Origin: an uncultured Bacteroidaceae bacterium
GTDB lineage: Bacteria; Bacillota; Clostridia; Christensenellales; CAG-917
Reading direction: 5' to 3'
NCBI GenBank assembly: GCA_964637515.1
Contig: CAZWUI010000003.1
Span: 46,087-110,086 of the forward strand
DNA: 64,000 nt
Shown: piece after piece, positions 3,349-49,179 of the stretch
Numbering within the stretch: the first letter of the stretch is position 1
Layout of the letters: the number at the start of each line of letters is the position of its first letter
The notes under the pieces: model-generated
What the model saw: the letters and a program-made list of their open reading frames with translations, nothing else
What the model was told of the DNA's origin: nothing
The model's database searches: none
Translations under genes and position numbers: made by a program

Positions 3349-4107
3349 ATGAATATACTACTATCAGCAACTTTACAAGAGCGTTTGCAACGCGCGTTCA
3401 TCTACGACGACAGATACAAACTGTACTTCGACGGACTCGGAAACACTCTTTTGATAGCCTTATTTGCCACACTTGTCGGTGTGGCAATCGGCGTTATATT
3501 GGCGATGATAAACTACGTCAACAAGCGTACCGGCAAACTCAAAATTTTGTCGGGCATTGCCAACGTCTACATAATGATTATCCGCGGTACTCCCGTCGTG
3601 TTGCAGTTGTTCATCATGTACTTCGTGGTGCTTGCATCTCTTGACAACGGCATAGTCATCGGTGCGATAACTTTCGGACTCAACTCGGGTGCTTACGTTG
3701 CGGAAATCGTCCGCGCAGGCTTTGAAAGTGTTGACTACGGTCAAATGGAAGCAGGTCGCTCTCTCGGTATGTCCACGGGGCAGACTATGATAAAAGTCAT
3801 CACTCCGCAGGCGGTCAGAAACGTTATGCCCCCGCTCTTCAATGAGTTTATAACTCTCGTCAAGGAAACCGCAATCGTCGGCTACGTCGGCATTCTCGAC
3901 CTCGGAAAAGTCCCCGGACTCATTCAATCCAGAACTTTCGATTATCTATTCCCGTTGCTCATCGCCGCATGTATGTATCTCGTTATCGTCATGATTTTAA
4001 CCGGGATTTTGAAGCTCATCGAAAAGCGTATGGCAAAGACCGACCGCAACTATAAGAAGATCAAAGTTCGCGGAAAGAAAGTCGGCGAAAACGTAGTGGA
4101 GGCGTGA
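3349..4107 (+). CDS. amino-acid ABC transporter permease (His/Glu/Gln/Arg family)
   Basis: Polytopic membrane protein with the EAA-like loop ([25 protein letters not shown]). Starts 2 nt after the binding-protein stop. Confidence 0.85.
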
Positions 4108-10778: not shown

Positions 10779-10780
10779 GA

Positions 10781-10809
10781 AAAAGCACTCCAAACGGAGT
10801 GCTTTTTTA
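10781..10809 (+). terminator. intrinsic terminator of lysC, part of a repeated module
   Basis: aaaagcactcc-aaac-ggagtgctttttt. The extended module 10781-10813 is 32/33 identical to the module after upp (49024-49056). Confidence 0.75.
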
Positions 10810-10858
10810 ATGAAATATTCTATGCGTGTGATATATTGCCGCCGCAAGCATGATAAAT

Positions 10859-10888
10859 GCGGCTTGGGGACGGAGCAAAAATACGCAG
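10859..10888 (+). repeat. 30-nt dispersed intergenic motif (copy 1)
   Basis: gcggcttggggacggagcaaaaatacgcag is 27/30 identical to 30900-30929. Its core recurs in both arms of the 30932-31000 palindrome. Confidence 0.9.
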
Positions 10889-10924
10889 AAATAAAACTAA
10901 CTTTCTTTAATAAGGTGCGCTCCG

Positions 10925-10987
10925 GCGAGATTCCCACGCTTTGCTCGGAATGACAGAGTGAGTACACACTTGCTTTTTCGGAGACGG
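10925..10987 (+). repeat. X-Y hairpin repeat unit
   Basis: X (gcgagattcccacgctttgctcggaat) is 25/27 identical to the reverse complement of 38702-38728. Y (gagtacacac...ctttttcggagacgg) matches the reverse complement of 38739-38768. The 3' part of X is 18/20 identical to 49229-49248. Confidence 0.85.
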
Positions 10988-11081
10988 AACACGAGCCGCA
11001 ACGGCGGCGAGAACTTCGAGTGCCGAGCACGTCACAAGGAACTTTGCTTATTTCGCTTTCACAGAAAGCGATGACGGCATT

Positions 11082-11114
11082 AAAAAAGCACTGCGGATTG
11101 CAGTGCTTTTTTTT
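11082..11114 (-). terminator. intrinsic (bidirectional) terminator of the acyl-CoA synthetase gene
   Basis: A-run, then gcactgc-ggatt-gcagtgc, then T-run, immediately after the stop codon on the minus strand. Confidence 0.75.
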
Positions 11115-12768
11115 ATTTCTTTTCGTCGTTTTTGCGGATCTCGACACGACGGATTTTGCCTGAAATCGTCTTTGGCATTTCGTCCACAAATTCGATGATG
11201 CGCGGATATTTGTAAGGCGCGGTCGCTTGTTTTACGTGGTTTTGAAGTTCCTTTTTCAGTTCTTCGCTAGGGGTGTAGCCGTTTGCAAGCACGATCGTCG
11301 CTTTGACGACTTGCACACGGAGCGGATCGGGTACGCCCGTGATTGCACATTCGAGAACGGCGGGGTGTTCCATAAGCGCAGATTCCACTTCAAACGGTCC
11401 GATACGGTATCCGCTCGATTTGATAATATCGTCCTTTCTGCCTACGAACCAGAATATGCCGTTCTTATCGCGCATGGCAAGGTCGCCTGTGTGGTAGTAT
11501 TTGCCGTTGCGTGCCTGTGCGGTGCGTTCGGGTTCCCCCTTATAGTTTGAGACCAAGCCGTATTGGTGGGGGCGTAGGCGGATTGCGATTTCGCCTTCGA
11601 CGCCGTCCGCAACGGGATTTTCGTCGTCGTCGATGAGGTCTATGTCGTAGCAGGGACTAGGCTTGCCGAGAGAGCCGGGAATAGGCTCCATACCCTTGAA
11701 AGTCGCAAGAATAACGGATGATTCCGTCTGCCCGAAACCTTCGTAGATTTTGTGTCCCGTCGCGTCGTAGAATTGCTTGAAAACTTCCGCATTCAACGCT
11801 TCTCCTGCGGTGGTGCAGTGCACGATAGAGCCGAAATCGTATTTGGACAAATCTTCTCTTATCAAGAAGCGATATATAGTGGGCGGTGCGCAGAAAGTCG
11901 TAACGCCGTATTTGCCGAGAAGGGGGAGAATATCCGTAGGGGTGAATCTGCCGTTGTAGTCGTAGACGAAAATCGCAGTGCCTGCAATCCATTGTCCGTA
12001 GATTTTGCCCCAACTGCACTTCGCCCAACCTGTTTCCGCCATGGTGAAATGCAGACCGTCGTCCACAACCTGTTGCCAGAAAAATGCGGTGAAGATATGC
12101 GCCAAAGGATATTCAAAATTGTGTTGGACCATTTTGGGCATACCCGTAGTGCCCGACGTGAAATAGCAGAGCATATCGTCGTTCCATTGGGGGCGGGGTA
12201 GGTCGGACGGCAAAACGTCGGATTCCTGCATGATAAGGTCGTCGAAACAACGATAGCCGTCGACGGGCTCGGTGTATATGCACTCTTTGAGAGTGGTGCA
12301 TTTGTCAAGGGCAAGTCCTATATGTTCGATGACGTCCGCTTCTGCCGTCGCGACGATGACTTTGACTTCTGCATTGTTTGCGCGGTAGTAGACGTCTTTG
12401 GGGGTGAGCAGGTGAGTGGCGGGGATAAGCACGACGCCGATTTTGCAACAGGCAACCGCAAGCACCCAAAACTCCCATCTACGATTGAGCATACCCATCA
12501 CGTAGTCGCCTTTTTTCAGTCCCATACCGAGAAGAAGATTTGCGCAACGATTGCTGAGTTTGGATATATCGTCGAAAGTGAAGATGCGCTCCTCGCCCTT
12601 GCTATTGCACCAAACCAATGCACGCTTTGAGGGTTGGAGTCGTGCATATTCGTCAACAACGTCAAAACCGAAATTGAAACCGTCGGGGACGGTCAGTCTG
12701 CAATTCGCACTGAAATCCTCGTAATCGTTGAAGTCGGTTCTGTTCAGAAATTTTGACAAAAGGTTCAT
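11113..12768 (-). CDS. AMP-forming acyl-CoA synthetase (medium-chain/acetate-like family)
   Basis: AMP-binding motif YFTSGTTGMPK, GEALN, YHTGD...DGIFWFVGRKDD and a C-terminal GKIRR lysine motif. Confidence 0.8.
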   Translation of the reverse strand: MNLLSKFLNRTDFNDYEDFSANCRLTVPDGFNFGFDVVDEYARLQPSKRALVWCNSKGEERIFTFDDISKLSNRCANLLLGMGLKKGDYVMGMLNRRWEFWVLAVACCKIGVVLIPATHLLTPKDVYYRANNAEVKVIVATAEADVIEHIGLALDKCTTLKECIYTEPVDGYRCFDDLIMQESDVLPSDLPRPQWNDDMLCYFTSGTTGMPKMVQHNFEYPLAHIFTAFFWQQVVDDGLHFTMAETGWAKCSWGKIYGQWIAGTAIFVYDYNGRFTPTDILPLLGKYGVTTFCAPPTIYRFLIREDLSKYDFGSIVHCTTAGEALNAEVFKQFYDATGHKIYEGFGQTESSVILATFKGMEPIPGSLGKPSPCYDIDLIDDDENPVADGVEGEIAIRLRPHQYGLVSNYKGEPERTAQARNGKYYHTGDLAMRDKNGIFWFVGRKDDIIKSSGYRIGPFEVESALMEHPAVLECAITGVPDPLRVQVVKATIVLANGYTPSEELKKELQNHVKQATAPYKYPRIIEFVDEMPKTISGKIRRVEIRKNDEKK

Positions 12769-29222: not shown

Positions 29223-29666
29223 TTAGCACTCAAACACAAAGGACAAAGGTCCGTCTTGTTGTTGCTCAATATACATATGTGCGCCGAACACGCCGTTCTT
29301 GACGGTGATCCCTTGTTCGCGGATTTTCTCGGTGATATACTCATAGAGAAATCTTGCTCTGTCTGGTGCTTCCGCATTGCCGAAGTCGGGGCGGTTGCCG
29401 CTGCCTTTGCCGAGTTTTCCCGCAAGCGAGAATTGGGACACGAGAAGAATTTCTCCGCCTGCTTGACGGATGTCGAGATTCATCTTTTCGTTCTCGTCGC
29501 GGAACACACGCAGTTTTGCCATTTTGCCTGCGAAGTAGTCCGCTTGCGCTTCGGTGTCTCCCTTTTCGATGCCCAAAAATATGGTGAGTCCGCCGGGAAT
29601 TTCACTGATGAGTTCGCCGTCTACGTATAAGGCGGATTTGAAAGTTCTTTGTATCAATGCTCTCAT
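29223..29666 (-). CDS. dtd: D-aminoacyl-tRNA deacylase
   Basis: MRALIQR N-terminus, an SQFSL block and a C-terminal DGP motif. 147 aa. The ATG overlaps the upstream stop (ATGA). Confidence 0.9.
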   Translation of the reverse strand: MRALIQRTFKSALYVDGELISEIPGGLTIFLGIEKGDTEAQADYFAGKMAKLRVFRDENEKMNLDIRQAGGEILLVSQFSLAGKLGKGSGNRPDFGNAEAPDRARFLYEYITEKIREQGITVKNGVFGAHMYIEQQQDGPLSFVFEC

Positions 29667-30805
29667 TTTTTCGGTTTTGCGCCGAGATAGGCGTACAGGT
29701 TGCATTCAAGTTCGGAATTGTACATTTTGCGAATCTTGTCCGCACGCTTGCCAAAGTACTTTTCAAACGCTCTATACGACGTGATCACGTAGGCGCACCA
29801 TTCGTCAAGAGAGGAAAACGTGCGACCAAATTCACGGTATAACGTCTTCAATTCGTCTTCCTTCATCAACCGCTCTCCGTATGGCGGATTGGTGACGATG
29901 ACGCCGTGTGCGTAGCGCGACGAAAAGTCTTTCATGTCGGCGACTTGTAGATGTATTTTGTTTCGCACTCCCGCCTTGTCCGCATGGCGTAAGGCGAGTT
30001 TGATTGCGTCGGGGTTTATGTCGAATCCGCTTATGCGAAGTTCTCGATCTCTTGCGATCAGTTGTTCTGCTTCGTCCTGTACCGCTTTGCGCAGGTCGGG
30101 TGCGTTCGTGAAGGATTCGCAAACAAAATTTCTGTTCATTCCGGGGGCTATATTCAATCCGATAAGGCTCGCTTCGATGGGTATCGTCCCGCTTCCGCAA
30201 AACGGATCCGCAAACGCGCGGTCGGGATTCCACACCGACAACATAATTATTGCCGCCGCAAGAGTTTCTCTGATGGGTGCGTCCCCAAGCCAAGTGCGGT
30301 ATCCGCGCTTATGAAGCCCTGCGCCCGACGTGTCGAGTGTGATTCGCACCACGTCGTTGATGATAGATACTTCGATGCCGTAGGTCGCACCGTCCTCGGG
30401 GAAAACTTTCACTCCGTAGTGGGATTGCATTGATGCGATGATAGCCTTTTTGACGACACTCTGCACACTGCTCAAAGCGAATAATTTGCTTTTCACGCTC
30501 TTTGCCGTAACGATGATTTTTGCGTCAATCGGCAGCACTTCGTGCCAGTCGTATTTTGCCGTATTTTCAAATAGACCGTCGAAAGTGTCCGCAGTGAAGG
30601 TCGTGAGCAATATCCGCACTCTGCCTGCCGTCCGCAAGAAAACGTTTGTGCGCAACACGTCGGAATAGTCGCCTTCAAAGAGTATTCTTCCTGCTTCCGC
30701 CCCGCTCGGAGCGTAGCCGAGAGAGATCAATTCCCGCTTGGTCACCGCTTCGATACCGCTTGCGGATGCAACTTCGATATTTAGTCTGCCGTCAAAAATA
30801 CTCAT
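29663..30805 (-). CDS. THUMP-domain class I SAM-dependent RNA methyltransferase (RlmL/YpsC-like)
   Basis: N-terminal THUMP-like region, SAM fold DPFCGSGT and catalytic NPPYG. Confidence 0.8.
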   Translation of the reverse strand: MSIFDGRLNIEVASASGIEAVTKRELISLGYAPSGAEAGRILFEGDYSDVLRTNVFLRTAGRVRILLTTFTADTFDGLFENTAKYDWHEVLPIDAKIIVTAKSVKSKLFALSSVQSVVKKAIIASMQSHYGVKVFPEDGATYGIEVSIINDVVRITLDTSGAGLHKRGYRTWLGDAPIRETLAAAIIMLSVWNPDRAFADPFCGSGTIPIEASLIGLNIAPGMNRNFVCESFTNAPDLRKAVQDEAEQLIARDRELRISGFDINPDAIKLALRHADKAGVRNKIHLQVADMKDFSSRYAHGVIVTNPPYGERLMKEDELKTLYREFGRTFSSLDEWCAYVITSYRAFEKYFGKRADKIRKMYNSELECNLYAYLGAKPKK

Positions 30806-30813
30806 ACGCTATT

Positions 30814-30841
30814 ATTATAATATAAAAATAAAATAAGTCAA
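30814..30841 (-). promoter_or_regulatory. promoter placed for a leaderless or near-leaderless methyltransferase mRNA
   Basis: Minus strand: ttgact, 16-nt spacer, tataat, then only 8 nt (aatagcgt) before ATG 30805. No SD. Confidence 0.45.
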
Positions 30842-30899
30842 TATCAAAAAAAACGTACGCGCCCCCGCTTTAAGCAAGCGGTATATTATGAGCGGACGT

Positions 30900-30929
30900 G
30901 CGGCTTGGTGACAGAGCAAAAATGCGCAG
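30900..30929 (+). repeat. 30-nt dispersed intergenic motif (copy 2)
   Basis: gcggcttggtgacagagcaaaaatgcgcag is 27/30 identical to 10859-10888. Confidence 0.9.
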
Positions 30930-30931
30930 TT

Positions 30932-31000
30932 GTTTTCCTCTTGGGGACGGAGCAAAAGCGGAAAACTTTTCCGCTTTTGCTCCGTCCCCAAGAGGAAAAC
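30932..31000. repeat. 69-nt perfect palindrome (34-bp arms, 1-nt centre)
   Basis: 30932-30965 (gttttcctcttggggacggagcaaaagcggaaaa) is the exact reverse complement of 30967-31000, checked base by base. Confidence 0.95.
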
Positions 31001-31075
31001 GTTTCAGCGGGGCGAGAAAATTAAAACTTGACTTGCATTTCGACATTCGGCATAATTATAGAAAGGAGATTTGCA

Positions 31076-31603
31076 ATGAATTTCAATGAATTGATTTTGA
31101 AAAGAGAAAGTTGCAGAGCGTTTTCGGGTGAGAGCGTGTCAAAGGACGATTTGACTCTCATCGTCGATGCCGGACGTTTTTCACCGTCTGCAAGGAATAG
31201 GCAACCGTGGGATTTCTACGTTGTGTCAGGAAATAAAACGGACGATGTGAGAAAAGCGGTGCAGTTTTACGGCGGAAACCTTTTCACCGATAAAGCGGCG
31301 GCGTTTGTTGCAGTCGTGAAAAACGAAGTCGAATCGAATATCCCGTCCAACCTTCCGCAAAGGAATTTTGTGGAATGCGATCTTGGTATGGCGATGGTCA
31401 GCATGGCGTATCAAGCGGCGGATATAGGACTCGGCACTTGCATTCTCGGAATGTTCAACGAAGATATGATCAAATCGGCGGTTGGTATCGACGGTGATAC
31501 GCGCACCGTCAAACTCGTGCTTGCAATAGGCGTGCCCGAATCAAAATCCGTCCGCACGAAAATGCGCAGAGATGCGGACGACGTAGCGCATTTTGTAGAT
31601 TGA
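31076..31603 (+). CDS. nitroreductase-family protein
   Basis: RESCRAF and SARNRQPW motifs. ATG 31076 follows AAAGGAG. A ttgact, 17-nt spacer, cataat promoter lies at 31028-31056. Confidence 0.75.
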   Translation: MNFNELILKRESCRAFSGESVSKDDLTLIVDAGRFSPSARNRQPWDFYVVSGNKTDDVRKAVQFYGGNLFTDKAAAFVAVVKNEVESNIPSNLPQRNFVECDLGMAMVSMAYQAADIGLGTCILGMFNEDMIKSAVGIDGDTRTVKLVLAIGVPESKSVRTKMRRDADDVAHFVD

Positions 31604-38473: not shown

Positions 38474-38701
38474 GTTGTATTACCTCATCTCACTTACCCC
38501 CGCAATAATAATATTAGGAAAATTAATCACGCGCTTGCAATATTAAATAATTTCATATATAATTGTGAAAAAGATTAAAATTTCTAATTGAAATCTTTAA
38601 AATTAGCAACACAAGCTTTGTCGTACAAGTTGAAACAAAGGAAAGAGGACCGCTGAAATGGCGGTTTTCTTTTTATACCGTCATTACGCACTGTTTCTGT
38701 T

Positions 38702-38768
38702 ATTCCGAGCGTAGCGTGGGAATCTCGCGGGTACGGTGCCGTCGCCGAAAGAGTGGGTGCGTACTCAC
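38702..38768 (-). repeat. X-Y hairpin repeat unit (inverted and permuted copy)
   Basis: The reverse complement carries Y (gagtacgcac...ctctttcggcgacgg) followed by X (gcgagattcccacgctacgctcggaat). Compare 10925-10987. Confidence 0.85.
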
Positions 38769-40278: not shown

Positions 40279-40373
40279 GGAGTTGATTGCCGATCTTGCA
40301 TAGCAAGATTTCATCGCAAAGCGATTTTATCCACGATAGTGGATTTATTCCAATGTAGGCGGATTTAGTTAAA

Positions 40374-40409
40374 AAGGCTTGGGATTGTTGCCAATCCCAA
40401 GCCTTTTTT
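40374..40409. terminator. bidirectional terminator between the AKR gene and ssrA
   Basis: aaggcttgggatt-gttgcc-aatcccaagcctt followed by a T-run, abutting the tmRNA 3' end. Confidence 0.75.
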
Positions 40410-40773
40410 GGTGGAGGTGCGGGGAGTCGGACCCCGGTCCGGAAAGCCTTCACCGCGACTTTCTACACGTTTATCTCGCGTTTAGATTTTTCGCACCTTG
40501 GTACACGAGCGAACCGCGGATTGATGAGTCCGTGATGACAATCGCACTACCGGACGATTATGCGACGTTGTCCGTTTTTCTGACACCGCTTGCCAAGGGA
40601 ACGGAAAACCTTGGGGCGATGCGCTGACTTAAATTATGCAGCGAGGGCGAAATCCATAGAGGATCTCTGAGTATTGTTTTTCGCGTTTAATTATTTGCGT
40701 TCCGTTTTTACGCAGACGAGCCTGCGACGTGCTTATCCCGACTCCAACTAGCCGTCGAATCCAGTACACCCCC
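40409..40773 (-). ncRNA. ssrA: transfer-messenger RNA (tmRNA)
   Basis: Minus strand begins GGGGGTGTACTGGATTCGACGG and ends GGACCGGGGTCCGACTCCCCGCACCTCCACCA. The internal tag reading frame GCG AAA AAC AAT ACT CAG AGA TCC TCT ATG GAT TTC GCC CTC GCT GCA TAA encodes AKNNTQRSSMDFALAA. Confidence 0.92.
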
Positions 40774-49023: not shown

Positions 49024-49052
49024 AAAAGCACTCCAGACGGAGTGCTTTTTTA
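49024..49052 (+). terminator. intrinsic terminator of upp (copy of the lysC terminator module)
   Basis: aaaagcactcc-agac-ggagtgctttttt. Confidence 0.75.
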
Positions 49053-49064
49053 ATGATATGCGTT

Positions 49065-49133
49065 CCTTGCGGAATGCATGATATATTGTTGGCGCAATAT
49101 GATATACTTGCTTCGCAAGCATGATATATGCAG
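49065..49133 (+). repeat. three tandem degenerate ~22-nt units
   Basis: ccttgcggaatgcatgatatattg / ttggcgcaatatgatatacttg / cttcgcaagcatgatatatgcag. The last is 17/18 identical to 10843-10860. Confidence 0.8.
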
Positions 49134-49179
49134 ACGACAGTCGCTTGTTAGCGACACCGTCTGCATATTTTGGTTTTTT
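49129..49179 (+). terminator. second terminator-like hairpin in the upp-lplA spacer
   Basis: tgcagacg..gtcgc-ttgtta-gcgac..cgtctgca followed by tattttggtttttt. Confidence 0.55.

Follow-up and report, generated by a model that had tools for sequence, protein, structure and literature searches.

A perfect palindrome of 69 nt (30932-31000) lies in the stretch of DNA analysed here, 64,000 nt of contig CAZWUI010000003.1 from an uncultured bacterium of the Clostridia (Christensenellales); this whole stretch is called the window below. The palindrome is situated in a 270-nt spacer between an RlmL-like methyltransferase gene (29663-30805, minus strand) and a nitroreductase gene (31076-31603, plus strand). 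An earlier reading of the sequence alone, the original prediction, had described it as built from a dispersed intergenic motif and had suggested either a very recent duplication-inversion of a small mobile repeat, or a maintained protein-binding site or hairpin RNA. We compared the palindrome with related genomes and metagenomes, in which the motif forms a family of hairpin repeats that also flank a transposase gene. The features concerned are the following.

10858-10888, plus strand: single unit of a subfamily with a TGCG/CGCA stem and an exact core, between the terminators of two convergent genes
30814-30841, minus strand: promoter-like site of the RlmL-like gene, TTGACT-16-TATAAT (11/12), intact in alleles with and without the block at 30882-31000
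30865-30881, plus strand: small hairpin CCGCTT-taagc-AAGCGG, directly left of that block, kept in the allele without it and forming the left edge of the indel
30882-31000, no strand: block of 119 nt (single unit plus doublet), missing from the empty allele of ~90%-identical relatives (L135, L140, L141)
30898-30929, plus strand: decayed single unit of the second (TGCG/CGCA) subfamily, stem TGCG ... CGCA, core CTTGGTGACAGAGCAAAA with 2 substitutions
30932-31000, no strand: inverted doublet, from inverted-repeat detection and folding, of the type of a REPIN (a doublet of repetitive extragenic palindromes, REP) or a dimer of terminal inverted repeats (TIR); unit A, the centre base C30966 and the exact reverse complement of unit A
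30932-30965, plus strand: unit A; stem half GTTTTCC (30932-30938), core CTTGGGGACGGAGCAAAA (30940-30957), complementary stem half GGAAAA(C) (30960-30966), the terminal C being the centre base, one position beyond the unit
30967-31000, minus strand: unit A', which is unit A on the opposite strand, with its core at 30975-30992
31028-31056, plus strand: promoter-like site of the nitroreductase gene, TTGACT-17-CATAAT (10/12), intact in alleles with and without the block

Reading of the sequence and inverted-repeat detection both confirmed the exact 34+1+34 structure that had been proposed, with arms of 34 nt that are 100% complementary around a lone C, and the motif cttggggacggagcaaaag was indeed contained in both arms. 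By our own arithmetic, the chance expectation for a perfect 34-bp inverted repeat is about 2e-16 per 64 kb. Folded as single-stranded DNA, the 69-mer reached -42.7 kcal/mol (z = -13.9), which 0 of 200 shuffles equalled. A promoter scan recovered the two divergent candidate promoters and placed the palindrome upstream of both. The argument that so long a palindrome should be unstable is not supported: arms of 34 bp are well below the unstable size. SbcCD-dependent instability of bacterial palindromes sets in well above this arm length, and REP doublets of such size are common.

Inverted duplications are made by assemblers, and the central 10 nt of the palindrome (30961-30970) are spanned by no independent contig; the palindrome might thus be an assembly artefact, a hairpin chimera. 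Exact-protein look-ups of the flanking genes led to Logan assemblies of 5 independent sequencing runs, 99.9-100% identical to the window. In these 5 runs the right-hand contigs all start at 30971 and the left-hand contigs all end at 30960, as they would if a k-mer assembler met a perfect palindrome. Each arm is therefore joined to its own unique flank, and independent contigs support all but the central 10 nt. In the window the palindrome is contig-internal, between unique flanks that are also adjacent in relatives, and near-identical doublets are present in other assemblies. The right arm is identical in strains L142-L146, which are 96-97.5% identical in the flanking genes. The palindrome is thus taken to be real, and the probability of a chimera is close to negligible.

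With up to 3 mismatches allowed, the 18-nt core CTTGGGGACGGAGCAAAA was found four times in the window (10863 plus, 30904 plus with 2 mismatches, 30940 plus and 30975 minus), where shuffled sequence would give 0.03 matches. All copies are intergenic, and the third direct copy reported upstream of the palindrome was recovered as described (30900-30929 is 27/30 identical to 10859-10888). Neither of the two sites is within a transcription unit: divergent promoters enclose one and two terminators the other, which fits propagation at the DNA level into neutral sites.

Scanning one genome per species for the core returned 100 stretches. About 70 of these were excluded, as their context showed them to be chance matches of 18 nt within genes of unrelated phyla, such as one conserved in Planctomycetes and one of Gastranaerophilales. 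A coherent family was present in gut Clostridia-type metagenome-assembled genomes (MAGs), namely CAZJZV01, CAZRHE01, MGYG-HGUT-03977, CAKPOI01, Ca. Limadaptatus and CASEOS01, and in human-gut metagenome contigs. The identical core (18/18) and the same architecture recur in MAGs and metagenomes with a G + C content of 26-57%. The expectation that the motif would occur elsewhere in the genomes of relatives was thus borne out, by a dispersed family of single units and 42 doublets. Among viral contigs the core gave one chance match inside a coding sequence, and a full-text literature search with the core in both orientations returned unrelated primer matches only.

The unit of the family is about 30 nt long and consists of a variable stem of 4-9 bp around a conserved core of 17-18 nt, (C)TTGGGGACGGAGCAAAA. 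Subfamilies differ in stem register, and pairing of the stems was therefore assessed with a register-tolerant script and shuffled controls. The core is abutted by 4 or more contiguous Watson-Crick pairs in 73% of 104 distinct units; shuffling the 3' flanks lowered this share to 6%, and mixing the flanks of different units lowered it to 17%. The stems differ between genomes and subfamilies, yet complementary segments enclose the core in every genome. In total 16 different stem sequences were seen, including TTTTCC/GGAAAA and TGCG/CGCA (the window and its relatives), GCGGACT/AGTCCGC, AATGA/TCATT, GATGT/ACATC, TCCA/TGGA and GAAAC/GTTTC. In the 104 aligned units no GTAG or GTGG occurred at a fixed position beside the stems.

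Neighbouring cores no more than 90 nt apart were arranged as (+,-) in 42 cases, as (-,+) in none and on the same strand in 21, and the spacing between the cores was 16-20 nt in 38 of the 42 doublets. Given 42 doublets in one order and 0 in the opposite one, the doublet is a defined, inherited entity of the family. Single units are as common as doublets. The palindrome in the window belongs to the TTTTCC subfamily; near-identical, slightly imperfect doublets of the same architecture were found in CAZJZV01 (L074, 711-779) and CAZRHE01 (L024, 6965-7033), both at loci unrelated to that of the window. These results do not support the very recent duplication-inversion that had been suggested: the family normally takes the form of inverted doublets, as it does at 42 other loci, never in the opposite order, and strains with 2.5-4% divergence in the flanking genes have an unchanged right arm.

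Both arms of the window palindrome carry the same 1-nt deletion (AAAAGCGG) relative to the doublets in L074 and L024 (AAAAAGCGG / AAAAAGAGG), and the arms have therefore been homogenised or copied from one another. This shared deletion would also suit a purely local event, in which template-switching at the short inverted stems made a single unit palindromic with no transposase involved; short inverted repeats do promote replication template switches. Such an event does not explain, however, why doublets at 42 other loci, in many genomes, have this order, spacing and stem type while 0 have the opposite order, nor why doublets directly flank transposase genes, and we regard it as unlikely to account for the palindrome. 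For this copy, template-switching may be the cause of the perfect symmetry, and arm-to-arm correction or copying may be behind it as well. We infer that the symmetry reflects the hairpin requirement of the family, arm-to-arm correction or both, and not a local function.

Some members of the family are more complex. Nested or tandem partial cores, for example TGACTTGGGGACGGA-GGGTGA-CTTGGGGACGGAGCAAAA, were seen in L038 (1784-1883), L054 (6374-6470), L029 (5141-5240) and L033 (38-80), and lengthen some palindromes to 100 nt. They suggest that units were inserted into units, or that palindromes grew stepwise. Indels between L031 and L054, inspected as possible copies of the family, proved to be unrelated AT-rich sequence.

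A gene accompanies the repeats. In L055 two inverted single units (1775 plus, 2764 minus) bracket an open reading frame of 247 aa (1962-2705), which matched Pfam Y1_Tnp at 1.4e-11 and NCBIfam NF047646 (REP-associated tyrosine transposase, RAYT) with 80.4 bits at a cutoff of 80. Across the transposases of related genomes, Pfam Y1_Tnp matches ranged from 1e-8 to 1e-12, and in an alignment of homologues the HUH histidines H60 and H62 and the catalytic Y120 are invariant. Core-bearing units adjoin the transposase gene at 9/9 loci (L055, L100, L113/L132, L148, L150, L151, L153, L157 and L158). Wherever both flanks are visible the units are on both sides of the gene; L100 shows one flank only. A repeated gene near cores in L043 and L068 was considered as another transposase candidate and turned out to be a lipoprotein paralogue.

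A profile search yielded 1527 protein clusters at E <= 1e-20, mostly of 245-275 aa. Many of these are on contigs of about 1 kb, as would be expected if flanking palindromes break assemblies. In clusters P0057, P0067 and P0123 (46-50% identical to the 253-aa protein of L113) core doublets occur on both gene flanks, in the gene order phosphoenolpyruvate carboxykinase (PEPCK) / (AMP-binding) / transposase / protein of ~3500 aa. P0033 (26% G + C) has its gene between single inverted units with a variant core, TTGGGGTCGGAGACAAA, and complementary stems GATT/AATC. In P0052 and P0106 the gene lies between those for glycyl-tRNA synthetase and an M18 peptidase, with related palindromes on GGGGACGTAGTAAAA at its flanks; in P0052 RecO is upstream of the synthetase. 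The core thus varies with the protein clade (GGGGACGGAGCAAAA, GGGGTCGGAGACAAA, GGGGACGTAGTAAAA). Judging from the gene order kept in these two lineages (PEPCK/AMP-binding/transposase/giant protein and glycyl-tRNA synthetase/transposase/M18 peptidase), the transposase gene appears to be vertically inherited.

Public contigs often end exactly inside doublets (L033, L055, L090, L094, L126 and many transposase-bearing Logan contigs of ~1 kb), which indicates that the family is a systematic cause of assembly breaks in MAGs of gut Clostridia. Between L150 (2383-3332) and L151 (2376-3325) the transposase gene and both flanking doublets are inverted relative to their neighbours (PEPCK and the giant protein), the product expected of recombination between flanking palindromes. 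In the window itself, an AMP-binding gene (11113-12768, minus strand) is 52% identical to the gene just before the transposase in L148 and L113, and the spacer downstream of it (10779-11112) contains a core unit and other modules. This locus might have lost a transposase gene, and the homology could be paralogous. As a decayed transposase locus the spacer is a weak lead only: it has no PEPCK neighbour, and tblastn found no transposase remnant.

The locus of the palindrome is polymorphic among close relatives. Alleles of relatives were reached via nitroreductase variants of one 90% cluster, and strains at 96-100% identity carry the palindrome. The window has the filled allele, with 119 extra nt (30882-31000). 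In ~90%-identical relatives two other states occur: an empty allele (L135, L140, L141), in which the spacer is 152 nt long with both promoters and the hairpin CCGCTT-taagc-AAGCGG intact, and an allele with a different dispersed module, CCCGCGAGATTCCCACGCTACGCTCGGAATGAC, in the spacer (L136-L139, L147). The reverse case was found at 40290-40295, a site that is empty here and that contains a 300-nt mosaic including a core doublet in the sister MAG CAZJZV01, which is ~94% identical to the window. We argue that these comparisons show turnover on a short evolutionary scale and speak against a conserved regulatory role.

They bear directly on the maintained protein-binding site of the original prediction, here an operator co-regulating the divergent RlmL-like and nitroreductase promoters. 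The position between two divergent promoter-like sites would suit an operator; inverted repeats are typical for dimeric regulators, and conservation of the core (18/18) in distant genomes implies recognition by some protein. However, the ~90%-identical relatives keep both promoters and both genes without the element or with an unrelated module. The same doublet is found at unrelated loci beside unrelated genes and brackets transposase genes, and an adjacent regulator gene is absent. An operator is highly improbable on this evidence.

The other half of that suggestion, a structured RNA that would serve as a hairpin-type small RNA, stabilise an mRNA or terminate transcription (atypically or in both directions), was considered in view of the extreme stability of the hairpin, since the 151-nt region folded as RNA reached -75.4 kcal/mol (z = -8.2). 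The loop on the reverse strand is C/U-rich and in our own reading resembles an anti-Shine-Dalgarno sequence, and REP-type elements elsewhere are known to function at the RNA level once they are transcribed (Di Nocera, De Gregorio & Rocco 2013, PMC3733652). Yet the element is upstream of both predicted promoters, so that the transcript of neither gene should include it. Its copies occur in both orientations, and the one at 10858-10888 in the window is enclosed by two terminators. No T-run directly follows the hairpin on either strand and a terminator scan made no call; with this and its position upstream of both genes it does not have the form of an intrinsic terminator, in agreement with what had been noted from the sequence. 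At the gathering threshold, an Rfam search of the whole window returned only a transfer-messenger RNA (tmRNA) elsewhere, and at a permissive E-value region 30800-31100 gave only generic long-hairpin miRNA models below threshold. A role in RNA is very unlikely, and neither form of the proposed maintained signal for the two promoters is upheld.

A small mobile repeat, resembling a REP or a miniature inverted-repeat transposable element (MITE), had been the remaining suggestion, and it is right: a dispersed extragenic hairpin flanks a REP-associated-type tyrosine transposase gene in related genomes. A MITE proper, left by a DDE-type insertion sequence (IS), with two terminal inverted repeats and its interior deleted, would also be small, non-coding and dispersed. 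The whole element is an inverted repeat and its conserved part starts with GGGG, as do the ends of the Tn3 family. Against this, a comparison of four TTTTCC-type copies, those of the window, L074, L024 and L043, revealed neither an evident target-site duplication nor a consistent flanking direct repeat, and single units, which would be half-elements, are as common as doublets. Moreover, units were found to bracket a Y1/HUH transposase gene (9/9 loci) and no other, in particular no DDE transposase, and no DDE parent was found. A DDE-type origin is therefore highly improbable.

We consider it likely that the palindrome is a non-autonomous DNA repeat of the REPIN/TIR-dimer type, tied to a transposase of the TIRYT / RAYT-subclass-2.1 type, and a passenger at this locus. 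A transposase encoded elsewhere in the genome would recognise the unit or the doublet folded in single-stranded DNA, the conserved core probably providing the specificity and the stem the structure. An invariant core, covarying stems and a core that changes with the enzyme clade are what would be expected under such a division. The enzyme would then cut and rejoin DNA beside the element, spreading or maintaining copies in transcriptionally quiet spacers. At the present locus a doublet and a single unit, now decayed, would have been added between two divergent promoters, leaving both untouched. Binding, cutting and movement are attributed to the enzyme by analogy with IS200/IS605 TnpA and E. 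coli TnpA-REP, the biochemistry of which is established and serves as a model for the proposed mechanism.

Several points weigh against this interpretation. A tblastn search of the 64-kb window and of ~96 kb of the ~94%-identical sister MAG found no such transposase gene, and it is an assumption that the cognate enzyme is encoded elsewhere in this genome. The copy number here, 4 per 64 kb, is modest, canonical REP/REPIN systems having tens to hundreds of copies per genome; in the sister MAG at least 30 units were counted in 12 stretches of 8 kb, which were chosen for containing the core. Single-unit stems are weak (-3 to -6.6 kcal/mol, with z-scores that are not significant), so that it is covariation that speaks for them. 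The ~90%-identical pairs, with their composite blocks, yield no target-site signature or precise insertion boundary, and recombination between repeats, not transposition, could be behind some of the allelic differences. Finally, no biochemistry of TIRYT-type enzymes was found in the literature searched.

Other repeats share the intergenic regions with the family. A second dispersed intergenic module, GTCATTCCGAGCGTAGCGTGGGAATCTCGCGGG, is present at 10922-10957 (reverse) and 38696-38731 in the window (2 copies, 0 expected) and also in L074, L081 (5390-5425), L089, L136-L139 and L147. It often adjoins core units and in some strains fills the palindrome's own spacer; no associated gene was identified. 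At 10958-11047 a non-coding module of ~90 nt has five matches of 91-94% identity in the sister MAG (L019 twice, L063, L089 and L069), and together with the neighbouring units it forms mosaics between convergent genes that resemble bacterial interspersed mosaic elements (BIMEs). The mosaic of the sister MAG mentioned above (L081, 5267-5575) consists of a core doublet, a GTCATTCC module and an array of mini-hairpins, and is located just downstream of the tmRNA gene; in the window this gene (40409-40773, minus strand, tag AKNNTQRSSMDFALAA) is found beside the empty site at 40290-40295.

Short arrays of 21-23-nt units were found at 49050-49135 (TRF period 21), 10828-10858 and 40296-40350 in the window and at 3655-3740 and 5470-5560 in L081. 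In each unit a mini-hairpin, the stem of which varies from unit to unit, comes after a constant octamer (ATGATATA, ATGTAATC or GATGAAATC), and the arrays look like another structured repeat family. A nested hairpin, ATATGCAGACG...GCGAC...CGTCTGCATAT, at 49127-49168 recurs beside a core unit in the sister MAG (L052, about 380-430).

The transposase was compared with published enzymes. In BLASTP it matched most published TIRYTs at 1e-18 to 1e-31 and the acidobacterial TIRYT aba 3477 at 1e-10 to 1e-13, whereas matches to the E. coli RAYT were at 1e-4 to 1e-7. With E. coli b0228 and P. fluorescens pfs3939 the matches were between 1e-4 and 1e-13, which does not place it in the Group 2/3 RAYTs (subclasses 2.2 / 2.5). 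The best match among solved structures was 4ER8, E. coli TnpA-REP. All members have a C-terminal extension of ~100 aa, for which Pfam matches to helix-turn-helix (HTH) domains were weak (HTH_24 0.0016, HTH_38 0.006, HTH_23 0.06), and some homologues carry a precomputed HTH_23 or HTH_28. TIRYTs are flanked by inverted repeats with GGGGWSAS, some of which are moderately abundant families in dimers and clusters, and canonical RAYTs are flanked by GTAG-tagged REPs (PMC3733652). The core contains GGGGACGG, which is 7/8 of GGGGWSAS (G for A at position 7); sister clades have GGGGTCGG, GGGGACGT and GGGACAGG in its place. As far as sequence comparison can tell, the transposase is closest to the TIRYT / RAYT subclass 2.1 (Group 1) type. 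Most TIRYTs are TnpA-Y1 subclass 2.1, which equals Bertels' Group 1, and this subclass has a C-terminal HTH-like extension; no REP-like sequences were identified for it (Quentin et al. 2018, PMC6006769). Clostridia too are among the hosts in which Group 1 RAYTs have been described, and the 16-mers beside these genes had ~12 copies (Bertels et al. 2017, PMC5581495).

It is possible, and we put it forward tentatively, that subclass 2.1 / Group 1 transposases maintain genome-wide REPIN-like populations in a large clade of gut Clostridia. The gene would then be inherited vertically and stay at one locus, and the enzyme, domesticated as a long-term partner in Gram-positive bacteria, would read a conserved 17-nt loop, possibly via the C-terminal HTH, and not a GTAG-tagged stem. 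The family provides a well-defined REP-like partner, in this clade, for a transposase subclass reported to lack one, and bears on whether partnerships of the REPIN-RAYT type are general. REP/RAYT biology gains a clean and abundant test case outside the Proteobacteria. With an invariant core, covarying stems, a clade-linked core and a syntenic gene, the recognition rules of the little-studied TIRYT enzymes become directly testable. For the annotation of genomes, a striking sequence feature is explained as ordinary selfish or commensal DNA and need not be treated as a regulatory signal. In practice, the palindromes break short-read assemblies of gut Clostridia, in which many transposase homologues are left alone on contigs of ~1 kb.

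Bacterial MITEs (RUP, Correia/NEMIS, ERIC, Bcr1) are likewise small, non-coding, dispersed inverted-repeat elements in intergenic regions. The present unit is far smaller (30-70 nt), half-elements are frequent, and neither a target-site duplication nor a DDE parent was found. The ends of IS200/IS605 elements and their miniature derivatives, palindrome-associated transposable elements (PATEs), have in common with the family an enzyme of the same HUH/Y1 superfamily, which acts on single-stranded DNA hairpins, and non-coding miniature copies. Here, however, the protein scored 20.6 bits against an IS200 equivalog cutoff of 55, the neighbours of the gene are constant, which is not IS-like, and the same unit is found left and right instead of distinct left-end and right-end hairpins.

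The following is shared with the REP/REPIN-RAYT systems and BIMEs of Proteobacteria (Nunvar 2010; Bertels & Rainey 2011; 4ER8): short extragenic palindromic units, doublets that form one long hairpin, BIME-like mosaics with other modules, a Y1 gene with constant neighbours, and presence or absence among close relatives. The present family differs in that its hairpin foot lacks GT[AG]G and the conserved part is the loop, not the stem. In addition, the protein is distant from Group 2/3 RAYTs (1e-4 to 1e-13) and ~90 aa longer, and the host is Gram-positive.

The TIRtron/TIRYT systems share with the present family a Y1/HUH transposase of ~250 aa, the gene of which is bracketed by inverted repeats, and moderately numerous further copies of the repeats across the genome, be they singles, dimers or clusters. 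The GGGG-led motif of the repeats and a C-terminal extension with weak helix-turn-helix similarity may be shared as well. Published cases are mainly from Proteobacteria and Acidobacteria and in one instance from a clostridial lineage (Desulforudis), whereas the family described here occupies a large clade of gut Clostridia. Quentin et al. saw nothing REP-like in subclass 2.1; here, REPIN-like doublets are found on both sides of a syntenic transposase locus, and the hairpin unit of the repeat is well delimited, its stems covarying and its core of 17-18 nt invariant over 26-57% G + C.

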